DNA of 64,000 bases from the sequence record MT611523.1, one strand, 5' to 3'. Every line of letters starts with the position of its first letter. Positions within the stretch are counted from its first letter, which is position 1. The position numbers and the translations under genes are program-made. The stretch is from Escherichia phage DK-13. Below, piece by piece: positions 41,359-52,564 of this stretch. The notes below the pieces were generated by a model. That model saw nothing but the letters and a program-made list of their open reading frames with translations. It was not told the origin of the DNA and did no database searches.

Positions 41359-42108
41359 CTAAACTTTTGCGTACTTCCAAAAATGGCCGTTTGACCTATA
41401 CATTCGGCCTGTCTTTTTATTTCTTTTACAAGCTGTGTATATATTTTGAGTATTGCCCGCCAATTGTAATAATTCCTTTGCCTCAGCTCCCGAATTATAC
41501 TTTTCAAGTATATTACCAAATTCATCGCATCTACAAACCGGTGTTCCAGTTGCCTTTCGGCATGCTTCTCGGCGCAACTTTTTCGTTTCTTCGGTTTGCG
41601 GATTTTCTTTAAATCGTCTCATTTGTGCATCGCGATTCTTTTGCCGTTGTTCATCAGTAATTGGATTATTTTGATAATACAATTTTAATGAGTTGGCTAT
41701 TTTGCTTTTGGTTTTATCAGACGCAGGGTGGTCGTTATGTCGCTTGTGTAAAGCAATTAACATTTTGTCTTTAAACTCGGATTGACTCCATAAGTTTGAC
41801 ATATGTTCACTAACGGCTTTACTATGTTCTTTTCGCATCCATTCATATTTTGCGCTATCAAATTTGTCACCACACATCCGGTGTATAGCAAACATTAATT
41901 TAGAAAGTCGATAAATTTTAAAAAGTAACAAATGCGCAATAAAATGTTCTCTTGCTGATAACAATACCAAATTATCTTCGGTGTCAGGCCCACCCAAACA
42001 CCTTGGTAGTATATGATGGGACTCCGTATAAAATGGGATATTCTTTTTGTTTAGGCCCCTTGCGAGGCCTTTGTCTATTAATTTATTATATAATTTTAGA
42101 TAATTCAT
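41359..42108 (-). CDS. HNH-family homing endonuclease-like protein
   Basis: 249 aa; HNH motif ESHHILPRCLGGPDTEDNLVLLSAREHFIAH; N-terminus paralogous to plus-strand HNH ORF at 56212; inserted between 61 and 56. Confidence 0.75.
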   Translation of the reverse strand: MNYLKLYNKLIDKGLARGLNKKNIPFYTESHHILPRCLGGPDTEDNLVLLSAREHFIAHLLLFKIYRLSKLMFAIHRMCGDKFDSAKYEWMRKEHSKAVSEHMSNLWSQSEFKDKMLIALHKRHNDHPASDKTKSKIANSLKLYYQNNPITDEQRQKNRDAQMRRFKENPQTEETKKLRREACRKATGTPVCRCDEFGNILEKYNSGAEAKELLQLAGNTQNIYTACKRNKKTGRMYRSNGHFWKYAKV

Positions 42109-43133
42109 ATTTTTGCATATTTGGATAATCGAAGTTTTGCCATTAAACCTTGTGCAATATTATCATTCATATAGGCTTCAATTTGCTCAGGCGTTGCTCC
42201 TTCCGATTTAATCATTTCATTTATATCTTTCGTATGCCACGGTGCATTGTCCCAGAACATAACAGCTTCTCCTGCATCGACTAATTTCTTCATACGTTTA
42301 ATTGTATCAGGATGTCTTGCTTCTGAATCCATCACCCATACTCTGGTTTCTGGATAAGGAACAGCTTCCAATGACAATGTTCCACCAGTTATCGCAATGC
42401 TGTTAGGGATAAACAAACTATCAATCGGACCTTCCATTACCCATACACGTTTACGCTCATCAATCTTGTCTACGCCATAGACTTTGGAAGCTTCTGGGTG
42501 AGCTTTGATTGTGATATATTTTTGTGGTGCATCTTTGCGAAGAGCTCGTCCTTGGAAAGATTCGATTTCTTTTTTGCCGTTGAAGATAGGAATAACCAAG
42601 CGTGGTTCATTCGTTTCATTCTTATACGTCCCAGGATTAACGGAGTTAACTAATGCGGGCCATTGGTTTGTAAACCATAACCGGTTCCAAACATTGCTCG
42701 GAATACACCGACTTTTTACATACTTAACTATCGGATGCGCTTCTGGTAAAGTATCGAGTCTTTCACAAAAAGCAAGCTGCTCAATAACCGGAGTTTTTTC
42801 TGGTTCTTTCGGAGTTTCAATGACTTCATTGCGTTGTCGCCCGAAGGCGTTCTCCTTATACTTCTCAACCATATATTCCCGGTGTAAATCCGGCTCAAAC
42901 TCTTTTATGTATTTGCTTATATGCGTGGAGTAGTCACAGTTAAAACATTTCACGTAAACCGCACCATCAGCCGGATTAGTATACGCCCAGAATCGAGCCT
43001 TGTGTGAATCTTTCTGGGAGTCCCCACAAACCTTGCAACGACAGTTTGCTTTAAATGTGCTCCCGGTGACTTCTCTATAACGTGGTTGATACGATAAAGC
43101 TCTGACTGCAAATTCTTTATCAATATATGACAT
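42105..43133 (-). CDS. 61: DNA primase gp61
   Basis: 342 aa; zinc-ribbon C.VCGDS...C.NC then TOPRIM-like region (...EGPIDSLF..N.IAITGG...); C-terminal IAQGLMAK.RLSKYAKI resembles T4 gp61. Confidence 0.9.
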   Translation of the reverse strand: MSYIDKEFAVRALSYQPRYREVTGSTFKANCRCKVCGDSQKDSHKARFWAYTNPADGAVYVKCFNCDYSTHISKYIKEFEPDLHREYMVEKYKENAFGRQRNEVIETPKEPEKTPVIEQLAFCERLDTLPEAHPIVKYVKSRCIPSNVWNRLWFTNQWPALVNSVNPGTYKNETNEPRLVIPIFNGKKEIESFQGRALRKDAPQKYITIKAHPEASKVYGVDKIDERKRVWVMEGPIDSLFIPNSIAITGGTLSLEAVPYPETRVWVMDSEARHPDTIKRMKKLVDAGEAVMFWDNAPWHTKDINEMIKSEGATPEQIEAYMNDNIAQGLMAKLRLSKYAKI

Positions 43134-43352: not shown

Positions 43353-43544
43353 TTATACAACGAAGATAGCTTTATCACCATTTGCATCAGTCACTTCATA
43401 AGTGTCTTCATGATACAATGGAATAATCCAGGTAACACCATCATCAGCGATAACATGGATTGCTTCTTGGTCTTGCGACACGATTTCATATTCTTCAAAA
43501 ATCTGGAAGACGGAAATCTTAGAGCCCGTACACATTGCACTCAT
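43353..43544 (-). CDS. hypothetical protein (63 aa)
   Basis: ATG ORF. Confidence 0.4.
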   Translation of the reverse strand: MSAMCTGSKISVFQIFEEYEIVSQDQEAIHVIADDGVTWIIPLYHEDTYEVTDANGDKAIFVV

Positions 43545-43740
43545 ATTGTTCCCTTCTTTTAATCAGTTGGCGATGTGCCTTTTTAAGTTTACGAATCTGA
43601 CGTTTAGTCGGTCGAGCAACGTAAGCTTGAGTAGTTACTCGTCCAAAAACTCCATACTTGGGAGACGGAGTATCAATAAAGACTTCCCATTGACAAGAGT
43701 AACTATATATTGCTTTAGAGAATTGGGTCAAAACAAACAT
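43519..43740 (-). CDS. hypothetical basic protein (73 aa)
   Basis: ATG ORF; basic C-terminus. Confidence 0.4.
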   Translation of the reverse strand: MFVLTQFSKAIYSYSCQWEVFIDTPSPKYGVFGRVTTQAYVARPTKRQIRKLKKAHRQLIKRREQYECNVYGL

Positions 43741-43741
43741 A

Positions 43742-44095
43742 TTAACCTCGCTTCATGAAGGCATTAAAAATCTGGTCGTCAACAGACTGTTCTTGAGCTT
43801 TGACCCAAGCTCCTTCCAGAATGTCATTCGCTTCAGTAGATATCATGACCCCAATTTCAGGGTTTCCTGTTATCCATGCTGCACAATCGCGCACATTCTT
43901 TTTATCAAATGGGTAGCCGCGAGTATCTTCATAAGGTCCATTCATTACCATAAATGAGCGAGCCTTTATGATAACATCATCTTTAACGATAATATAACCA
44001 ATCGCCTGATTAAACCGAGGCTCACGGAATTCATAATGAGCATTACCGTCATTATTGCTCGCTAGTTCAAAATTCAGAAAATTATAATAACTCAT
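43742..44095 (-). CDS. hypothetical protein (117 aa) ending in VDDQIFNAFMKRG
   Basis: ATG ORF; last 12 codons encoded by a 37-bp sequence repeated at the end of the next gene. Confidence 0.5.
   Translation of the reverse strand: MSYYNFLNFELASNNDGNAHYEFREPRFNQAIGYIIVKDDVIIKARSFMVMNGPYEDTRGYPFDKKNVRDCAAWITGNPEIGVMISTEANDILEGAWVKAQEQSVDDQIFNAFMKRG
43747..43783. repeat. 37-bp direct repeat, copy 1
   Basis: ctcgcttcatgaaggcattaaaaatctggtcgtcaac, identical to 44102..44138. Confidence 0.7.
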
Positions 44096-44096
44096 A

Positions 44097-44534
44097 CTAA
44101 TCTCGCTTCATGAAGGCATTAAAAATCTGGTCGTCAACTGAATATACAGGGGTTTCCAGAATTTTCAAAAGACTGTTTTTGATGTACTTACCCGGGATAC
44201 CCATATTAACAATACTGTCATTCAATTCATTGTCAGGGTTGATGTCTTTAAATTCAAACCCGTCAAACTCAACCTTGTCAGGAATACCATCAGCGAAAAA
44301 ATAAACCAATTGGTGCATTGTATTGCACGAAAATAATTTGGACTTGACCGCAATAAGTTCTTTCCAATGGTTTAATTCTTTGTTAAGAAGCTTATGAGCA
44401 AACGTAATTCTATCATCACTATCAACAAGAAAATAACCCAGGTATTGAATGTCGTCGCTCCAAAACACCCGGTATGCCTGTGCATTTGGATTTTTACAGC
44501 GAAGTTTTTTGATAACTAAATTTCTGTTAATCAT
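44097..44534 (-). CDS. hypothetical protein (145 aa) ending in VDDQIFNAFMKRD
   Basis: track ORF 44097..44621; start moved to ATG 44534 with AGGTGA SD directly after sp stop. Confidence 0.45.
   Translation of the reverse strand: MINRNLVIKKLRCKNPNAQAYRVFWSDDIQYLGYFLVDSDDRITFAHKLLNKELNHWKELIAVKSKLFSCNTMHQLVYFFADGIPDKVEFDGFEFKDINPDNELNDSIVNMGIPGKYIKNSLLKILETPVYSVDDQIFNAFMKRD
44102..44138. repeat. 37-bp direct repeat, copy 2
   Basis: identical to 43747..43783. Confidence 0.7.
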
Positions 44535-44535
44535 T

Positions 44536-44829
44536 TTATTCACCTGTAACCCATTGAACAATTTTGCTATTGTCAAATGAAGCATCGCAATACAGAACAT
44601 AGTTATACTGCATAACGTCACCAGAAGTCAATTTGTCAGATACTTCTTTAACCATATCAGGGCGGTCACGTTTAGTTATGTTCATAATATCAGCATAAAT
44701 CTGATGTTCAACATCAGTCTGGTCGGCAGTCATAGACCACTCACAAAGGTCTTTATCAAGTCCAGCAGTAACTGGAGCTGTACCACATGATGCTACGGTA
44801 AGAATTGCCGCGATTAATAACTTTTTCAT
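44536..44829 (-). CDS. sp: periplasmic superinfection-exclusion protein Sp (spackle)-like
   Basis: 97 aa with N-terminal signal peptide MKKLLIAAILTVASCGTAP; same length and position (between 61 and 41) as T4 sp. Confidence 0.55.
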   Translation of the reverse strand: MKKLLIAAILTVASCGTAPVTAGLDKDLCEWSMTADQTDVEHQIYADIMNITKRDRPDMVKEVSDKLTSGDVMQYNYVLYCDASFDNSKIVQWVTGE

Positions 44830-44886
44830 TTCAATCTCCTCAGTAGTTGATAGGGATAATATACAGCATTATCCCTTTGTTGTACA

Positions 44887-45126
44887 CTATTTTAATGCAT
44901 CTTCCAGATAAATTTTGCGGAATTTGCGTTTTGTCTGACGAATCTGACGCTTGGTAGGTTTCACAGGAAATTCGAAGAACTCTACGTATTCTTGTTCATA
45001 ATCATTGTGGCCGACTGAAAGAACTAGTTCCCAGCTGCTTACGGTGCGTTGGATAAACATATTATGCTTACCAAAAGATTTATTCCAAAAAGAACTAGGG
45101 GTAGGTTTCATTAATGCGATATTCAT
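44887..45126 (-). CDS. hypothetical protein (79 aa)
   Basis: ATG ORF; basic C-terminal tail. Confidence 0.4.
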   Translation of the reverse strand: MNIALMKPTPSSFWNKSFGKHNMFIQRTVSSWELVLSVGHNDYEQEYVEFFEFPVKPTKRQIRQTKRKFRKIYLEDALK

Positions 45127-45330
45127 TTAAATTTCCTCAATGCGGGCATCATATTCAAAAACTTTATTGTCATTAACAAAGGCTTTAACCAGCGCATTAT
45201 TCACTTCTGCATACTGCACTGTAACCCATTCAATCATATTTTTGTCACTAACATCCAGCGCGGTTTCTTTGGTAAACATATTACCGTTTTCAAACCAACC
45301 AATAAATACTACGTTCTCTAATTTATACAT
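45127..45330 (-). CDS. dmd: Dmd-like antitoxin (discriminator of mRNA degradation)
   Basis: 67 aa; pattern V.F.GWF.N..MFTKE...W.T.QYAEVN.ALVKAF..D.KV matches my recollection of T4 Dmd; position near gene 41. Confidence 0.5.
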   Translation of the reverse strand: MYKLENVVFIGWFENGNMFTKETALDVSDKNMIEWVTVQYAEVNNALVKAFVNDNKVFEYDARIEEI

Positions 45331-45648
45331 TTAGATTTCCTCGCAGAAGGCCCAGGCAGCGTGATAAACTGTTGCGCCTTTAGTATCATTTAAACAAACC
45401 ACGTCAACCGGTGCAATCACACGATAAAGACGGGGTTCTCCTCCATATGAGCGAGCTGCTCTTCCTGCATAGATACGTGCCAAACCAATATCTTCAGTAA
45501 AAAACACACGCCCTAAATTTTTCTTACGCCCAACTTCTGACAGAACACCAGTTGCATCAGGAGGGCAAAGCATATTTTGGATTCCAGCATTAGAGCTTGA
45601 CCCATGATAATAAACTTTGTATTCTGCCTTGCAATCAATGGTTTTCAT
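45331..45648 (-). CDS. hypothetical protein (105 aa) with PARP-like NAD-binding signature
   Basis: YYHGSSSNAGIQNMLCPPDATG...GRVFFTEDIGLARIYA resembles the H-G-S and Y-F-A-D blocks of H-Y-E-class ADP-ribosyltransferases; ATG with leader/SD. Confidence 0.5.
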   Translation of the reverse strand: MKTIDCKAEYKVYYHGSSSNAGIQNMLCPPDATGVLSEVGRKKNLGRVFFTEDIGLARIYAGRAARSYGGEPRLYRVIAPVDVVCLNDTKGATVYHAAWAFCEEI

Positions 45649-45685
45649 TTTATTCTCCAGTAGTTGATAGGGTCATTATAACATA

Positions 45686-45710
45686 AGAAAAAGGGGCTGT
45701 AAGCCCCTTT
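45686..45710 (-). terminator. rho-independent terminator after gene 41
   Basis: minus strand AGGGGC-UUACA-GCCCCU followed by UUUUUCUU. Confidence 0.55.
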
Positions 45711-45719
45711 TAAAATATT

Positions 45720-47159
45720 TTAAAATTTCATTTGAGCAGCAAGGTCGTCCAGGTCGCTCCTGTTGACCCTGGTTTGTCGATTCATTTCAGCCTGGCGATT
45801 CATCTCACCGGTGGCTTCTTTAACTGTAGGGCCTTGTTTAGGAGCCGAATCATCATCAACCTCATACCAGCGCTGATTACCTTTCTTAACACCCATCTTG
45901 AATTTATTATAGTAGTTCTTATCACCATAACGAGACTTAAGCTGTTTGATTAACTGCAGCCCCATTTGAGCGAATTCTTCGGTCTCAACAACACCCAACA
46001 TAAAGTCAGCTGTATGAGCAATACCAAAGGATTCTGCGATGTCAGCCATATCAATCTCAGCTGCAACGTTCGCGCCCCTGGTTGTCTGCGCTGCAGTCCA
46101 CAGGACCACATTTTTCTCGACTGCCAGACCACGAAGTTCTTCTGCAACCATCTTAATCAGACCGTAACTATTTTCGGTAAACGTTTTCAGTCTTGAGCTT
46201 GCACAGATTGCCAGGTAGTCAACAATAATCACATCTGGTACAAACCCTTGCTTCAGCTTGTACTCGTTCAGTAATGCACGGAAGGTGTCCGCATGAGCAC
46301 CGCCAGTTGGATATTGTTTTATCTTCAGAGTCCCAAGAGTCCCGGAAGCACGCCATTTTTCCATCTTAGCTTTATATTCCGCCCATGACACATGACCTTC
46401 ATCAATATCATCCAGAGATACATCCAGCAAGTTGGCATCAATACGTTTGGCACATACTTCTTCAGCCATTTCCATGCTTATATAAAGCACATTATGACCA
46501 GTCTGAAGATAGTCAGCGGCTAACGAACAAAGTCCAAGGGATTTGCCGACGTTCGTCCCGGCCAGTAAAACGTTCTCTGTACCGTACTCAACCCCACCCT
46601 TTGTGATTTTATTCAGGATGTTAATACGGAACGGAACCTTCTTCGATTTGTTCAGATAAGTCTGGAATCGAGCTTCGTAATCGTTTAACCAGTCATGGCC
46701 CAGAGCGGAGTCAAAACAGATAGACAATGCATCGCGCATGATGTCGGGGATAGCACCAATATCCGGGATTCGTTTATCACGTTTATCTTTAGGAAGTTCG
46801 GCATTACTCTGGATTTCGATAATCCTGGATGTGGCATTGAACATCGCAGACTTCTGTACATACTTCTCGGTTTCTTTAACCAACCAGTCCTGGTCTTCTG
46901 GAGTATCGGCCAGGACTCCTAAGAGTTTCTTTGTGCCTTCATATTCGACTTCAGAAAGGTCAGAACTGTCGAGCGCGATATCAAGTGCAGTCTTAGTTGG
47001 TACCGCTTGATATTCTTTTACGTGTTCGTTAATCGTATTAAAAAGGGTCTTTGCAGGACCCTTTTCAAAATATGTGTTATTCAGATATGGCCAGACTTTA
47101 ACAAAATATTCCTTGTTAAAGAGTAGCTGGGATAAAATAGTTTCTACCACTTCCACCAC
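45720..47159 (-). CDS. 41: replicative DNA helicase gp41 (DnaB-like)
   Basis: 479 aa; N-terminus MVE...LS.L.F...YF.KVWPY; Walker A GTNVGKS; resembles T4 gp41; track start is GTG. Confidence 0.93.
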   Translation of the reverse strand: MVEVVETILSQLLFNKEYFVKVWPYLNNTYFEKGPAKTLFNTINEHVKEYQAVPTKTALDIALDSSDLSEVEYEGTKKLLGVLADTPEDQDWLVKETEKYVQKSAMFNATSRIIEIQSNAELPKDKRDKRIPDIGAIPDIMRDALSICFDSALGHDWLNDYEARFQTYLNKSKKVPFRINILNKITKGGVEYGTENVLLAGTNVGKSLGLCSLAADYLQTGHNVLYISMEMAEEVCAKRIDANLLDVSLDDIDEGHVSWAEYKAKMEKWRASGTLGTLKIKQYPTGGAHADTFRALLNEYKLKQGFVPDVIIVDYLAICASSRLKTFTENSYGLIKMVAEELRGLAVEKNVVLWTAAQTTRGANVAAEIDMADIAESFGIAHTADFMLGVVETEEFAQMGLQLIKQLKSRYGDKNYYNKFKMGVKKGNQRWYEVDDDSAPKQGPTVKEATGEMNRQAEMNRQTRVNRSDLDDLAAQMKF

Positions 47160-49849: not shown

Positions 49850-52564
49850 TTAAAAGTCAAACATGTCAAAAAGAGTTGCTTTCTTTTCGTAATCAACCTT
49901 TGCAGCTTCAGAGAAACCTGTTAATGGCTTAACAAAAGTCTTCTGGAACAGTGTGTTGTAGTCCATCCACTGCAGAACCTGGTCACGGATTTCAATCGGG
50001 AGTTCAATCCCAGATGGCCATGCAATCACGGTTTCACCAAACGGGTTGCCGACTTTAAGAGGAAGTACATACACCTTTTCCCCTTCCATGATTTGCGGAA
50101 CAGTCTTCAGACCTTTAGTTGCACGCATATAAGCAAGCACACCTTTGATATGAGCCGGGCACTTAAATCCAGGGAAACCACCTTCATTATATTTCTGGAT
50201 GTTGTTAACCGATGATACACCTGCGATGGTCATGTAGTTAAGCTCATTAAATTCCTTATTGAATTCCTTGAAGTATGTCTGCAGAGATTCTTCACCTTCT
50301 TGCAGCATGCGGCGGATACATTCTTTCAGAGCTTTCTGACATGCCTTTGGAGTACTCGACTTTTGAGTTTCCAGACCCATAATTTTCAGTTTCGGAACAG
50401 CATAACGTGTGCCTTCCATATCGTACACGTTCAGCGCATAACGCTTCTTCGCCGTCCAGAATCCACCCACACCTTTAGAACCCAGCGGAGGACATGCAAT
50501 CGCCTCACGGTCCATAAACATAAGGTGCTGTTTGTTGTTCATGTATTCAGCCAGCTCACGGAAAGCTTTATCGATTGCCGGTTCCAGACGGTCTTTCGCA
50601 AACTTGTCCATGAAGTCAACCAGGTGGTTTGTATCACGGAATTTAGATTCGCCACCAACCTTTTTAATCAGGTTATCACACTGGATATAAATGGAGTCAG
50701 TATCGCCATAGAACACATAAGTTTCGCCGCTTGTCCCACAAACACTATCGAAGTATTCGTTAACTTTACGCTCAATCCACTGCAATGCAAGTTGTCCGAA
50801 AGATGTAATCGCGGTTGCATTTCGCAGGTCAAAGTAACGGAACCAGATATTGCCCAGAGCGCCATAACAGCTGTTGATAAGCAGCTTACGGTTAATCTGT
50901 GCGGTCATGCCTGCAACTTCTTCCATCTGCGCTTTATACAACATACCATTTAGGACTGTTTGATTCAGACCATGCAAGGTTGTTTTCATATTGTCATCAA
51001 AGTCATGACGATAATCAACTTCAGGTTCGGTTGTACCAGTTCCTGGATTGCGCAGAGCTTCCTTAATCAGTTCACCATTACGTTGAGCCGCAAGCATATA
51101 GCCTTTGTGCTCTTTACGCTGATTAAACACCTTGGTGACTTCTGTCGGAATAATACCCGCAACATCTTTAAAATACATCATACCATTTGGAGCACAACTA
51201 AATGTATCAGATGGACGGTCAGCAGTTCCGGCGATGTATTCATGCATTTGCGCAGGAGCAAATGAACCGGCAATCGTTTCTGGACTGATGTTAATCTGTC
51301 GGATAATGCTCGGATACAGAGATGTTAAGTCACAGCTCATTACATATTTGTACGCGTTCGGAATAGGTTCCTTAACAAATGCACCAGGGAACGATTGACG
51401 AACATGCGATTTGGTTTCCGGAATGACTTTGTTTTGAGTCTTCAGGCTGTTAAAGATAATCGCATCCCAAGTTTTGATTGGGCTGAATACAGACTGAATC
51501 TGCATTTTTGCGTAATAACCCATTGACTGACTCAGGTTAATAAACTGCCGCTTACGGTCAATCTGCACAACACGATAAACGTCGATGATGTTATAAGAAA
51601 TATACCGCTGGTGATTTGATTCGCGCAGTTTAGAAATCGGGCCATCATACGGGAGTTTACCAACACCCAGTTCAGATTCCGCAACATAATCCAACGAATA
51701 AGACGGTTGGTTTGTGAAGCTGAACTTTTTATACAGGTCCAGATAATCCAGAACAGAGATACCCAGAATCTGAATGATTTCTTGTTCTTCACCAAAGCCA
51801 TTGTTAATGACCTTAACTTTTGTACGACGATGTGGGCTCAGACGTTTTGCCGTAGCTTCACCAAATACATTTTTAAGGCGGTTGTAGATATATGGAATAT
51901 CAAATTTCTCGATGTTCCAACCAGTTAACATAACCGGAGTTTTCTCGTTCCAGAATACCAAATACTGCTGGAGCATTTCTTCTTCTGAATCGAAAGCCAT
52001 ATAAACAATTTTTTCCAGGATTTCTTCAGGGACTTCATCACCGCCGTCTTCCTGCAGCTTAGCAGCAATATCAATAGACCATTGCTCCACAGTGGCGTAT
52101 GGTGAGCCCAAAAGGTCAAAGACATAGAATTTATCGTCTACCGAATCATAGTGCGTCAGGGCATCAATAGGGTGACGTGCTTCAGACGGTTCAGGGAACC
52201 CATCAGGAGATGTCACCTCGATATCGAAGTTAGCAACACGGATTTTACTTGAATCATATTTGATTTCGTGTGGGTAACGGTCGGACAAGTATGCGAGTTT
52301 AAAGTCATCCATACCCATAGCTTCGAGACCCATGTCATTCATTCGCTTCATCCACTGGGATGCATCACGCATGGAATCGAATTCTTTTTTCACACAACCT
52401 TTATTATAGATGTCTGTATACTTTGCAGCCTGGCCTTCCCGGGCGTGCATAAACAAGCATGGGGCATAAGGGATTTCACGAACACGTTCATGACCATTCT
52501 TGTCAATATATCGTTCGAGTAGGTTGTCACCGATTTGTTCGATAGTTAAATAAAATTCTTGCAT
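49850..52564 (-). CDS. 43: DNA polymerase gp43 (family B)
   Basis: 904 aa; N-terminus M.EFY..IE..G.N..ERYID.NG.ER.RE; family-B motifs incl. YGDTDS; resembles T4 gp43. Confidence 0.95.
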   Translation of the reverse strand: MQEFYLTIEQIGDNLLERYIDKNGHERVREIPYAPCLFMHAREGQAAKYTDIYNKGCVKKEFDSMRDASQWMKRMNDMGLEAMGMDDFKLAYLSDRYPHEIKYDSSKIRVANFDIEVTSPDGFPEPSEARHPIDALTHYDSVDDKFYVFDLLGSPYATVEQWSIDIAAKLQEDGGDEVPEEILEKIVYMAFDSEEEMLQQYLVFWNEKTPVMLTGWNIEKFDIPYIYNRLKNVFGEATAKRLSPHRRTKVKVINNGFGEEQEIIQILGISVLDYLDLYKKFSFTNQPSYSLDYVAESELGVGKLPYDGPISKLRESNHQRYISYNIIDVYRVVQIDRKRQFINLSQSMGYYAKMQIQSVFSPIKTWDAIIFNSLKTQNKVIPETKSHVRQSFPGAFVKEPIPNAYKYVMSCDLTSLYPSIIRQINISPETIAGSFAPAQMHEYIAGTADRPSDTFSCAPNGMMYFKDVAGIIPTEVTKVFNQRKEHKGYMLAAQRNGELIKEALRNPGTGTTEPEVDYRHDFDDNMKTTLHGLNQTVLNGMLYKAQMEEVAGMTAQINRKLLINSCYGALGNIWFRYFDLRNATAITSFGQLALQWIERKVNEYFDSVCGTSGETYVFYGDTDSIYIQCDNLIKKVGGESKFRDTNHLVDFMDKFAKDRLEPAIDKAFRELAEYMNNKQHLMFMDREAIACPPLGSKGVGGFWTAKKRYALNVYDMEGTRYAVPKLKIMGLETQKSSTPKACQKALKECIRRMLQEGEESLQTYFKEFNKEFNELNYMTIAGVSSVNNIQKYNEGGFPGFKCPAHIKGVLAYMRATKGLKTVPQIMEGEKVYVLPLKVGNPFGETVIAWPSGIELPIEIRDQVLQWMDYNTLFQKTFVKPLTGFSEAAKVDYEKKATLFDMFDF

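Follow-up and report, generated by a model that had tools for sequence, protein, structure and literature searches.

Two adjacent genes of Escherichia phage DK-13, which encode proteins of 145 and 117 amino acids (aa) and lie in the place that gene 61.2 (adfA) occupies in phage T4, terminate in the same C-terminal peptide, and in both of them this tail is encoded by an identical 37-bp repeat to which an earlier note on this DNA had drawn attention. The DNA analyzed, hereafter the window, comprises 64,000 nt of this phage (record MT611523.1), and the positions of the features are collected in Table 1. We consider it probable that these open reading frames (ORFs) are stacked AdfA-like small early genes, that the tail is functional, and that the DNA coding for it acts as a repeat that recombines and is homogenised. 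As judged from the sequences, the tail is the hallmark of three groups of proteins found in the same slot, namely AdfA (~210 aa), a 117-aa type that includes gp61.2 of phage T2, and a 145-aa type that includes JS98 orf30. The gene order of the window, T4, T2, RB69, JS98 and VR7 places the 145-aa and 117-aa genes in the 61.2 (adfA) slot, downstream of sp and upstream of 61.1/61.

The window contains two exact copies of the 37-mer CTCGCTTCATGAAGGCATTAAAAATCTGGTCGTCAAC and no more (43747-43783 and 44102-44138); by chance, none would be expected (100 shuffles). The identity is exact at both positions, as the earlier note had it, and the shared peptide, SVDDQIFNAFMKR, is one of 13 residues: both minus-strand ORFs terminate in SVDDQIFNAFMKR[G/D], the 117-aa protein ending in ...QSVDDQIFNAFMKRG* and the 145-aa protein (its length counted from the ATG used in annotated relatives) in ...YSVDDQIFNAFMKRD*. 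Beyond the 37 nt, exact identity ends on both sides of each copy. If three mismatches are allowed the repeat extends to 49 nt (94% identity; 43738-43786 and 44093-44141), and it then covers, besides the tail codons, the preceding Ser codon, the stop codon, one spacer nucleotide and the ATG with which the next gene opens; the Ser codons preceding the two tails are not the same (TCT and TCA). When the 117-aa and 145-aa proteins were compared by BLASTP, only the 13-residue tail aligned. Perfect 37-nt identity was also observed in UPEC01, VR20 and RZ, which are independently sequenced relatives, and hence the repeat is not an assembly artefact. At the junction between the 145-aa and 117-aa genes the final codons of the tail give a purine-rich, putative Shine-Dalgarno-like stretch, after which come the stop codon, a single nucleotide and the next start codon, and the GAGGTTAATATG junction recurs after AdfA in T4 and after the 117-aa type in T2. 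In each copy of the repeat an antisense ATG opens a plus-strand ORF (44110-44304, 64 aa, and 43755-43796, 13 aa). These ORFs were dismissed, as they are wholly different past the repeat; since they are alike only in the residues encoded by it, they give no sign of function.

The search for the tail elsewhere consisted of scans of viral contigs and metagenomes with a back-translated DDQIFNAFM pattern. In the 16 viral and 12 metagenomic loci the tail was borne only by AdfA, the 117-aa type and the 145-aa type, and the genes carrying it were either single or arranged in AdfA+117 or 145+117 tandems. The subtype P0009 is a third one with the same tail. T4 gp61.2 (AdfA, 208 aa), T2 gp61.2 (108 aa as annotated, 47% identical to the 117-aa protein) and JS98 orf30 (144 aa) all end in ...SIDDQIFNAFMNRG, and RB69 AdfA (212 aa) ends in ...SVDDQIFNAFMNRG. 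The slot is filled by AdfA alone in T4 and RB69, by the 117-aa type alone in T2, by the 145-aa type alone in JS98 and VR26, by an AdfA + 117-aa tandem in loci L025, L035, L036 and L043 and, judged by the span of the tblastn hits, in many cultured Tequatroviruses (e.g., RB68 and slur04), and by a 145-aa + 117-aa tandem in Gapriverviruses, the window included.

Among the 65 tails compared, the 27-nt core occurred as 13 DNA haplotypes; seven of its eight degenerate codons were polymorphic, while the core peptide was unchanged across the three protein groups and four phage genera. As this set had been gathered with a pattern that forces the peptide, homologues recovered by whole-protein similarity were examined too: DDQIFNAFM was intact in 30 of the 31 that reach the C-terminus, the exception being a fragment with an M to L change. 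The positions around the core vary (S/D/A/T, I/V, N/K, R/K and G/D). An invariant core encoded by codons that vary synonymously indicates that selection acts on the peptide, and supports the earlier proposal that the tail is a shared functional element. If the selection were instead on the DNA or the RNA, with the peptide being incidental, the repeat could serve recombination, translational coupling or ribosome binding, or it could harbour a promoter or a structured RNA. It is true that the tail ends in ...(A/C)GAGG(T) TAA T ATG, or a close variant, in every arrangement, so that GAGG in the Arg-Gly codons, 7 nt ahead of the next start, would act as a Shine-Dalgarno sequence and the last two to three codons, with the TAATATG junction, would double as the ribosome-binding site of the next gene; in addition, unit-sized insertions and deletions map to the repeats. 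However, this explanation is able to account only for the last few codons of the tail, it does not fit with a core whose codons vary between genomes while the amino acids remain, and the elements it calls for were not detected: no Rfam family matched the repeat region, the mRNA around the tail folded no better than shuffled sequence (z-scores 0.16, 1.92 and -1.46), and no promoter-like or terminator-like site was present within either copy. We therefore regard it as quite improbable. A promoter-like site at 44168-44141, just upstream of the copy at 44102-44138, was discarded as probably due to chance (20 sites versus 8.8 expected in this AT-rich region).

Because the tail peptide is so constrained, tandem members provide a direct repeat of 37-49 bp within coding DNA. 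In a three-way alignment, T4 corresponded to the tandem locus L043 minus exactly one unit, i.e., a 117-aa-type body plus one tail, and the breakpoints could be resolved no finer than the identical tail sequence. That T4 is exactly one repeat unit short of its tandem-carrying relatives indicates that the repeat works as a recombination site, a role that the earlier note had suggested for it. T2, which is without AdfA, keeps AGAGGTTAGTATG, the end of an upstream tail junction, directly after sp. The same unit-wise relation was observed when JS98 and VR26 were compared with the window, where the extra 117-aa gene plus one tail forms a clean unit of 355-361 bp; for VR26 the 8-nt TTAATATG stop/start junction, and not the tail proper, matches the breakpoint. 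In experiments, this same region of T4 undergoes tandem amplification and deletion at homologies of 6-10 bp (PMC9391042), and recombination between nearby repeats of the promoter(early) stem-loop (PeSL) kind in T4-type phages gives excised mini-circles (PMC2839356). By analogy, a circle that carries a body and one tail could integrate at any resident tail, and such an integration would re-form the tandem, hold the reading frame and keep the coupling to the next gene.

A clean extra unit, a 145-aa gene that stands alone in JS98 and VR26, and an identity that is exact in the lineage of the window might also be the outcome of a recent local duplication or insertion, by which a newly inserted, unrelated gene would have received its 3′ end from the 145-aa gene, with the tail of the 117-aa protein left as a functionless scar. 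This is very improbable, and the idea was rejected, since it is contradicted by the T2-type and P0009-type homologues: the 117-aa type of T2-type phages, which are without the 145-aa gene, has the same tail in different codons, and the P0009 subtype carries it too. Furthermore, in MN01 the two copies differ at 6 of the 37 nt, yet the peptides they encode are the same but for a V/I change.

The differences between the two copies of the 37-mer were then tallied in a subset of genomes. There were none in the window, UPEC01, VR20 and RZ, one in 212 and P479, two in UPEC07, TH22 and TH40, four in VR7 and VR25, and six in MN01. Relatives with both genes but without the repeat, which in the earlier note would have spoken against its significance, were not among them: the close relatives keep both tails, but not the exact DNA identity. 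Over a 39-nt stretch, which adds the G/D codon, the paired tails showed 1-7 differences in all 19 tandem loci, so that the differences within a genome came down to 1 per 39 nt. When tails of the 117-aa type from Gapriverviruses were compared with those from T4-like phages, the mean was 5.96 differences per 39 nt (minimum 4), whereas the 117-aa type differed from the neighbouring 145-aa type within Gapriverviruses by a mean of 3.49, and from the neighbouring AdfA within T4-like phages by a mean of 2.69. In addition, an N-to-K replacement (AAT/AAC to AAG) was found in the tails of both paralogues in Gapriverviruses only, and a rare GAT at the second Asp codon is common to both tails of L025. The tail DNA thus tracks the phage clade and not the gene family, which indicates concerted evolution; an identity of 37/37 nt cannot be obtained from selection on the peptide alone. 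The source of the concerted evolution is either gene conversion or the exchange of bodies at a resident tail. The earlier note had deduced a recent duplication or gene conversion from the nucleotide identity, and its second term agrees with tail DNA that sorts by clade, as conversion would give, whereas a recent duplication is not the origin of the tail.

The assignment of the two proteins to families was approached with profiles and sequence searches. The 145-aa protein matched phrog_8539 (E 5.6e-94), and tblastn with this type gave 85 phage records, every one Dhakavirus or Gaprivervirus-like. The 117-aa protein matched phrog_4122 (E 3e-53), and tblastn aligned it to T2-type proteins with 47% identity (E about 1e-19 to 1e-21). 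A word-indexed search with the 117-aa protein returned close relatives only, and phmmer against 1.84 billion representatives returned six matches, including two fragments and one spurious match, the repetitive protein P0012. Both window proteins carry the AdfA-type C-terminal end [IV]DDQIFNAFM[NK]R[GD]. On the Pfam AdfA profile (PF23813, length 211, gathering threshold 27 bits) the 117-aa protein scored 21.4 bits, which is below the threshold and came from the tail only (positions 196-211 of 211); its tail by itself also matched the last 16 positions of phrog_3781. The 145-aa protein gave no match to PF23813, and neither body matched it once the tail had been removed. T2 gp61.2 passes the threshold (32.2 bits, profile positions 126-211) while its orthologue in the window falls short, and hence the 117-aa protein belongs to AdfA by transitivity only. 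NCBIfam gave no matches for any of these proteins, T4 AdfA included.

T2, which bears the 117-aa type, is described in the literature as a phage without an adfA homologue. Its gp61.2 gene (L006, about 1416-1800) is annotated as encoding 108 aa, and an in-frame upstream ATG preceded by GAGG would give 118 aa, the form present in the tandem loci. A candidate 'fourth family' of 157 aa in Yersinia phage fPS-65 was discarded, as it is an N-terminally truncated annotation of AdfA: this 'phage protein', g037c (L047, 4036-4661), is AdfA minus its first ~50 residues, a 150-nt unannotated gap separates it from sp, and a frameshift or a misplaced start of adfA probably lies behind it. AdfA is believed to neutralise DarT1 by binding it directly, under the control of a residue of the body: binding depends on residue 164, and His is needed there for DarT1 neutralisation (PMC11825919). 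In a low-confidence profile alignment, NIINHIA of AdfA faces NVRDCA of the 117-aa protein, so that the equivalent of residue 164 would be Asp and not His, although this alignment is too weak to count on.

The bodies were then compared without their tails. With HHalign, the tail-less 117-aa type gave scores of 24.4 and 20.5 against the two halves of AdfA, both above all 60 column shuffles (null about 11.5 ± 2.5), whereas the tail-less 145-aa body compared with the 117-aa type or AdfA did not rise above its column shuffles. By tblastn, residues 74-208 of T4 AdfA aligned to T2-type proteins with about 31% identity. The 117-aa protein was modelled with AlphaFold2 from a 10-sequence alignment, with a predicted local distance difference test (pLDDT) of 80.7; a single-sequence run reached only 47. 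When this model was compared with viral models by Foldseek, the best match beyond its own family was the 145-aa protein of VR25 (E 8.7e-5, template modelling (TM) score 0.58), followed by two AdfA entries (E 4e-4 and 1e-3, TM 0.56 and 0.54), one of which is the N-terminally truncated fPS-65 copy. No solved structure convincingly resembled the 117-aa fold, in accord with the report that AdfA has no structural homologues (PMC11825919). These predictions suggest that the 117-aa and 145-aa bodies may have a common fold; the most economical reading is that the three groups are one divergent superfamily, and AdfA may be an internal duplication of the module. The statement of the earlier note that the two genes are otherwise unrelated consequently holds for the comparison of the 117-aa and 145-aa sequences, but not for the predicted structures, nor for the 117-aa orthologue of T2 that passes the Pfam AdfA threshold.

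In the model of the 117-aa protein the pLDDT was about 90 at residues 6-98, about 50 at residues 100-117 and below 50 at residues 101-104, and the tail was drawn as an extension of the helix 87-115, unpacked against the body. Nowhere else in these genes are indels as frequent as in the segment that directly precedes the tail: the linker variants within families include EQS-V, EPPTD-I, ESSIA-I and a 9-residue insertion in P0009, and there are indels between families too. Docking motifs usually take this form, a variable tether that leads to an invariant C-terminal peptide, and the tail may be one. Another explanation is that the tail is an integral structural element, the end of a long C-terminal helix that serves folding or stability, and that the DNA identity reflects common descent with occasional conversion. 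The apparently common fold of the three groups, the continuation of the helix 87-115 into the tail, and the S-x-D-D start and Gly end of the tail, which would suit helix capping, are consistent with it. Structural helices, however, normally tolerate conservative changes, while the tail is the sole invariant stretch of proteins whose bodies are less than 25% identical; moreover, the linker between body and tail varies by up to about 9 residues, and the low pLDDT of a tail that is unpacked on the body does not favour this explanation either. We find it rather unlikely. The idea of an amphipathic helix was dropped, since the hydrophobic moment does not single the tail out.

If the tail is a docking peptide, its partner might be a component of the replisome such as the gp45 sliding clamp, and the inhibitors would then be taken to the replicating single-stranded DNA on which DarT-type toxins act. 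An ORF that ends at about 49850-49873 on the minus strand, presumably the gene 43 DNA polymerase, has the end ...EKKATLFDMFDF*, which is the clamp-binding end of the RB69 type; the equivalent RB69 peptide binds the clamp. The polymerase end (...ATLFDMFDF*) and the tail have a similar [IL]F[ND]xF spacing near the C-terminus, and the tail-bearing genes lie between the helicase and primase genes. This likeness, however, is a mere pattern resemblance obtained through a loose regular expression, and the end of the tail is polar/basic ([NK][RK][GD]) and not hydrophobic/acidic, so that we give little credence to the clamp as the partner.

Returning to stacked AdfA-like genes with a functional tail, each member is built from a variable body, a linker of changing length and composition, the [S][IV]DDQIFNAFM[NK][RK][GD] peptide and the stop/start junction. 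The tail would be a tethered interaction peptide with a job common to all members, e.g., docking onto or plugging a conserved partner, and the variable body would fix the target specificity, as residue 164 does for the binding of AdfA to DarT1. Such a division of labour, the body for specificity and the tail for the common function, seems the most likely one. As the comparison of loci indicates, the recombination system of the phage uses the repeat to add or remove whole gene-plus-tail units and also homogenises the copies, and the perfect 37 nt of the window are the local outcome of homogenisation in one Gaprivervirus sub-lineage. Several points weigh against this interpretation. The evidence for gene conversion comes from few variable sites (about 8 in 39 nt), and body exchange at a fixed tail, instead of conversion, would yield the same pattern; the direction of the events at the repeat, insertion or deletion, is one that we infer. 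The homology of the 145-aa body is drawn entirely from the similarity of predicted structures, the tail-less profile comparison being not significant, and the identical amino acids of the tail contribute to the Foldseek E-values. The low pLDDT of the tail could merely reflect the shallow 10-sequence alignment, and as a helix the tail had a hydrophobic moment no better than that of shuffled sequences. A bolder version can be advanced only tentatively. In it the tail would be the working end of the whole anti-toxin group, a portable peptide able to dock on, or to plug, a single conserved partner (the site of a DarT-type toxin or a replisome component) while interchangeable bodies provide specificity, and its coding DNA would be a recombination linker, the coding counterpart of PeSLs, by which T4-type phages stack anti-defence cassettes in frame, swap them or discard them with the translational coupling kept.

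By its sequence, the window is a Gaprivervirus-like T4-type coliphage: the identity of the region is 96-97% to Gaprivervirus coliphages and ~85% to JS98-type Dhakaviruses. The order 41, dmd, DUF7279, sp, 145, 117, DUF7279, ..., 61 in the window corresponds to 41-dmd-61.4-sp-61.2-61.1-61 in T4 (Table 1).

Table 1. Genes, tails and junctions between genes 41 and 61 of the window
Feature	Position	Strand	Remarks
Gene 41, helicase	45720-47159	-	
105-aa early ORF, conserved (phrog_2110; RB69 ORF040c-like)	45331-45648	-	directly after gene 41
dmd	45127-45330	-	
DUF7279 (gp61.4-like) gene, first copy	44887-45126	-	
sp (spackle)	44536-44829	-	conserved left neighbour of the slot
145-aa gene (JS98 orf30 type, phrog_8539)	44097..44534	-	from the ORF listing; upstream member of the tandem
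Tail of 145-aa protein, S-V-D-D-Q-I-F-N-A-F-M-K-R-D	44100..44141	-	holds repeat copy 44102-44138
Junction 145-aa gene to 117-aa gene, AAGCGAGAT-TAG-T-ATG	44093..44108	-	read from the sequence; within the 49-nt repeat
117-aa gene (phrog_4122, short AdfA-like type, T2 gp61.2 orthologue)	43742..44095	-	downstream member of the tandem
Tail of 117-aa protein, S-V-D-D-Q-I-F-N-A-F-M-K-R-G	43745..43786	-	holds repeat copy 43747-43783
Junction 117-aa gene to next gene, AAGCGAGGT-TAA-T-ATG	43738..43753	-	GAGG 7 nt before the ATG of the TifA-like gene
DUF7279 (gp61.4/TifA-like) gene, second copy	43519-43740	-	right neighbour, directly after the 117-aa tail; Pfam PF23945, E 3e-20
Gene 61, primase	42105-43133	-	

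Pfam gave no match for the 105-aa ORF. The orthologue of the second DUF7279 gene is called 61.4 in the annotation of VR7, and two small ORFs lie between this gene and gene 61. The two DUF7279 paralogues bracket the sp-145-117 block and have in common a 22-nt stretch that is 86% identical (43591-43612 and 44938-44959). MN01, EAWsc9 and YenP8 are without the second copy, and there the junction after the 117-aa tail leads straight into a 63-aa ORF. PeSL-like elements were detected near the locus at 45689-45711, 45675-45703, 44841-44876 and 45658-45680; just after gene 41 a stem-loop of 10 bp, AAAAGGGGCTTACAGCCCCTTTT, and a promoter-like site, CTTACA-17-TATAAT, overlap, another stem-loop is located upstream of sp, and a 23-nt repeat (87% identity) links both stem-loop positions. 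An ORF of 249 aa (41359-42108, minus strand) shares 4 nt with the primase gene at its stop codon; this ORF has the HNH-type motif ESHHILPRCLGG... and looks like a homing endonuclease inserted after gene 61. In UPEC07, UPEC01, EAWsc9 and YenP8 (L004, L028, L030 and L031) the deposited product names of these small genes are evidently wrong transfers ('clamp loader subunit', 'DNA polymerase', 'nucleotidyltransferase', 'serine/threonine protein kinase', 'transcriptional regulator' and 'major capsid domain-containing protein').

The window pair can be set beside several known systems. It shares with AdfA (T4 gp61.2, PF23813) the slot between sp and 61.1/61, the identical C-terminal tail and a predicted fold that appears similar, with the C-terminal half of AdfA aligning to the 117-aa type; it differs in the size of the proteins (117 and 145 aa versus about 210 aa), in bodies that are less than 25% identical, in the stacking of two members and in that both fall under the Pfam threshold. 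The region between genes 41 and 61 was termed the anti-toxin-antitoxin (anti-TA) island by Srikant et al. 2022, and in it dmd inhibits RnlA, tifA (61.4) inhibits ToxN and adfA (61.2) counters DarT (PMC9391042). The likeness to that system lies in the same region, in small early genes that inhibit toxins and in changes of copy number via short direct repeats; there, however, the repeats are fortuitous 6-10-bp microhomologies acting under laboratory selection, whereas here a coding segment of 37-49 bp is kept by selection on the peptide and the variants are natural. PeSL cassettes (PMC2839356; Comeau et al. 2014, PMC4122927) also consist of short conserved repeats that bound small accessory genes in hyperplastic regions, and recombination between neighbouring copies removes or moves the gene cassettes. 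PeSLs, however, combine a promoter with a terminator, do not code for protein and lie at the 5′ ends of genes, whereas the window repeat is a coding 3′ end in which a promoter or stem-loop was not found; the PeSL-like elements near it are separate features. As in the concerted evolution of tandem paralogues, the paralogous tails are closer within a genome or clade than orthologous tails are between clades, and derived substitutions are shared, but here only about 40 nt of the 3′ ends are homogenised and the gene bodies stay unalignable. The C-terminal tip of the single-stranded DNA-binding protein and the clamp-binding tail of the T4/RB69 DNA polymerase are tethered C-terminal docking peptides, and by analogy the short conserved C-terminal peptide after a variable linker may be likened to them.

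The AdfA family and the processes of recombination and conversion are already known, and no new principle is involved. What appears to be new is the invariant tail as a hallmark of the family, the short and 145-aa relatives (including a T2 gene counted as 'no adfA'), their stacking and the concerted evolution of the tail, none of which we found mentioned in the open-access papers searched. Phage inhibitors of a DNA-ADP-ribosylating toxin are few, AdfA being one of those known; its shorter relatives of 117 and 145 aa, which occupy the same slot and can be stacked, are further candidate anti-defence genes. The sole absolutely conserved feature of the group is a C-terminal peptide of 9-13 residues, which is an obvious target for mutagenesis, and at the coding repeat nature offers an instance of what laboratory work on this region has shown, namely that recombination drives the gain and loss of counter-defence genes.

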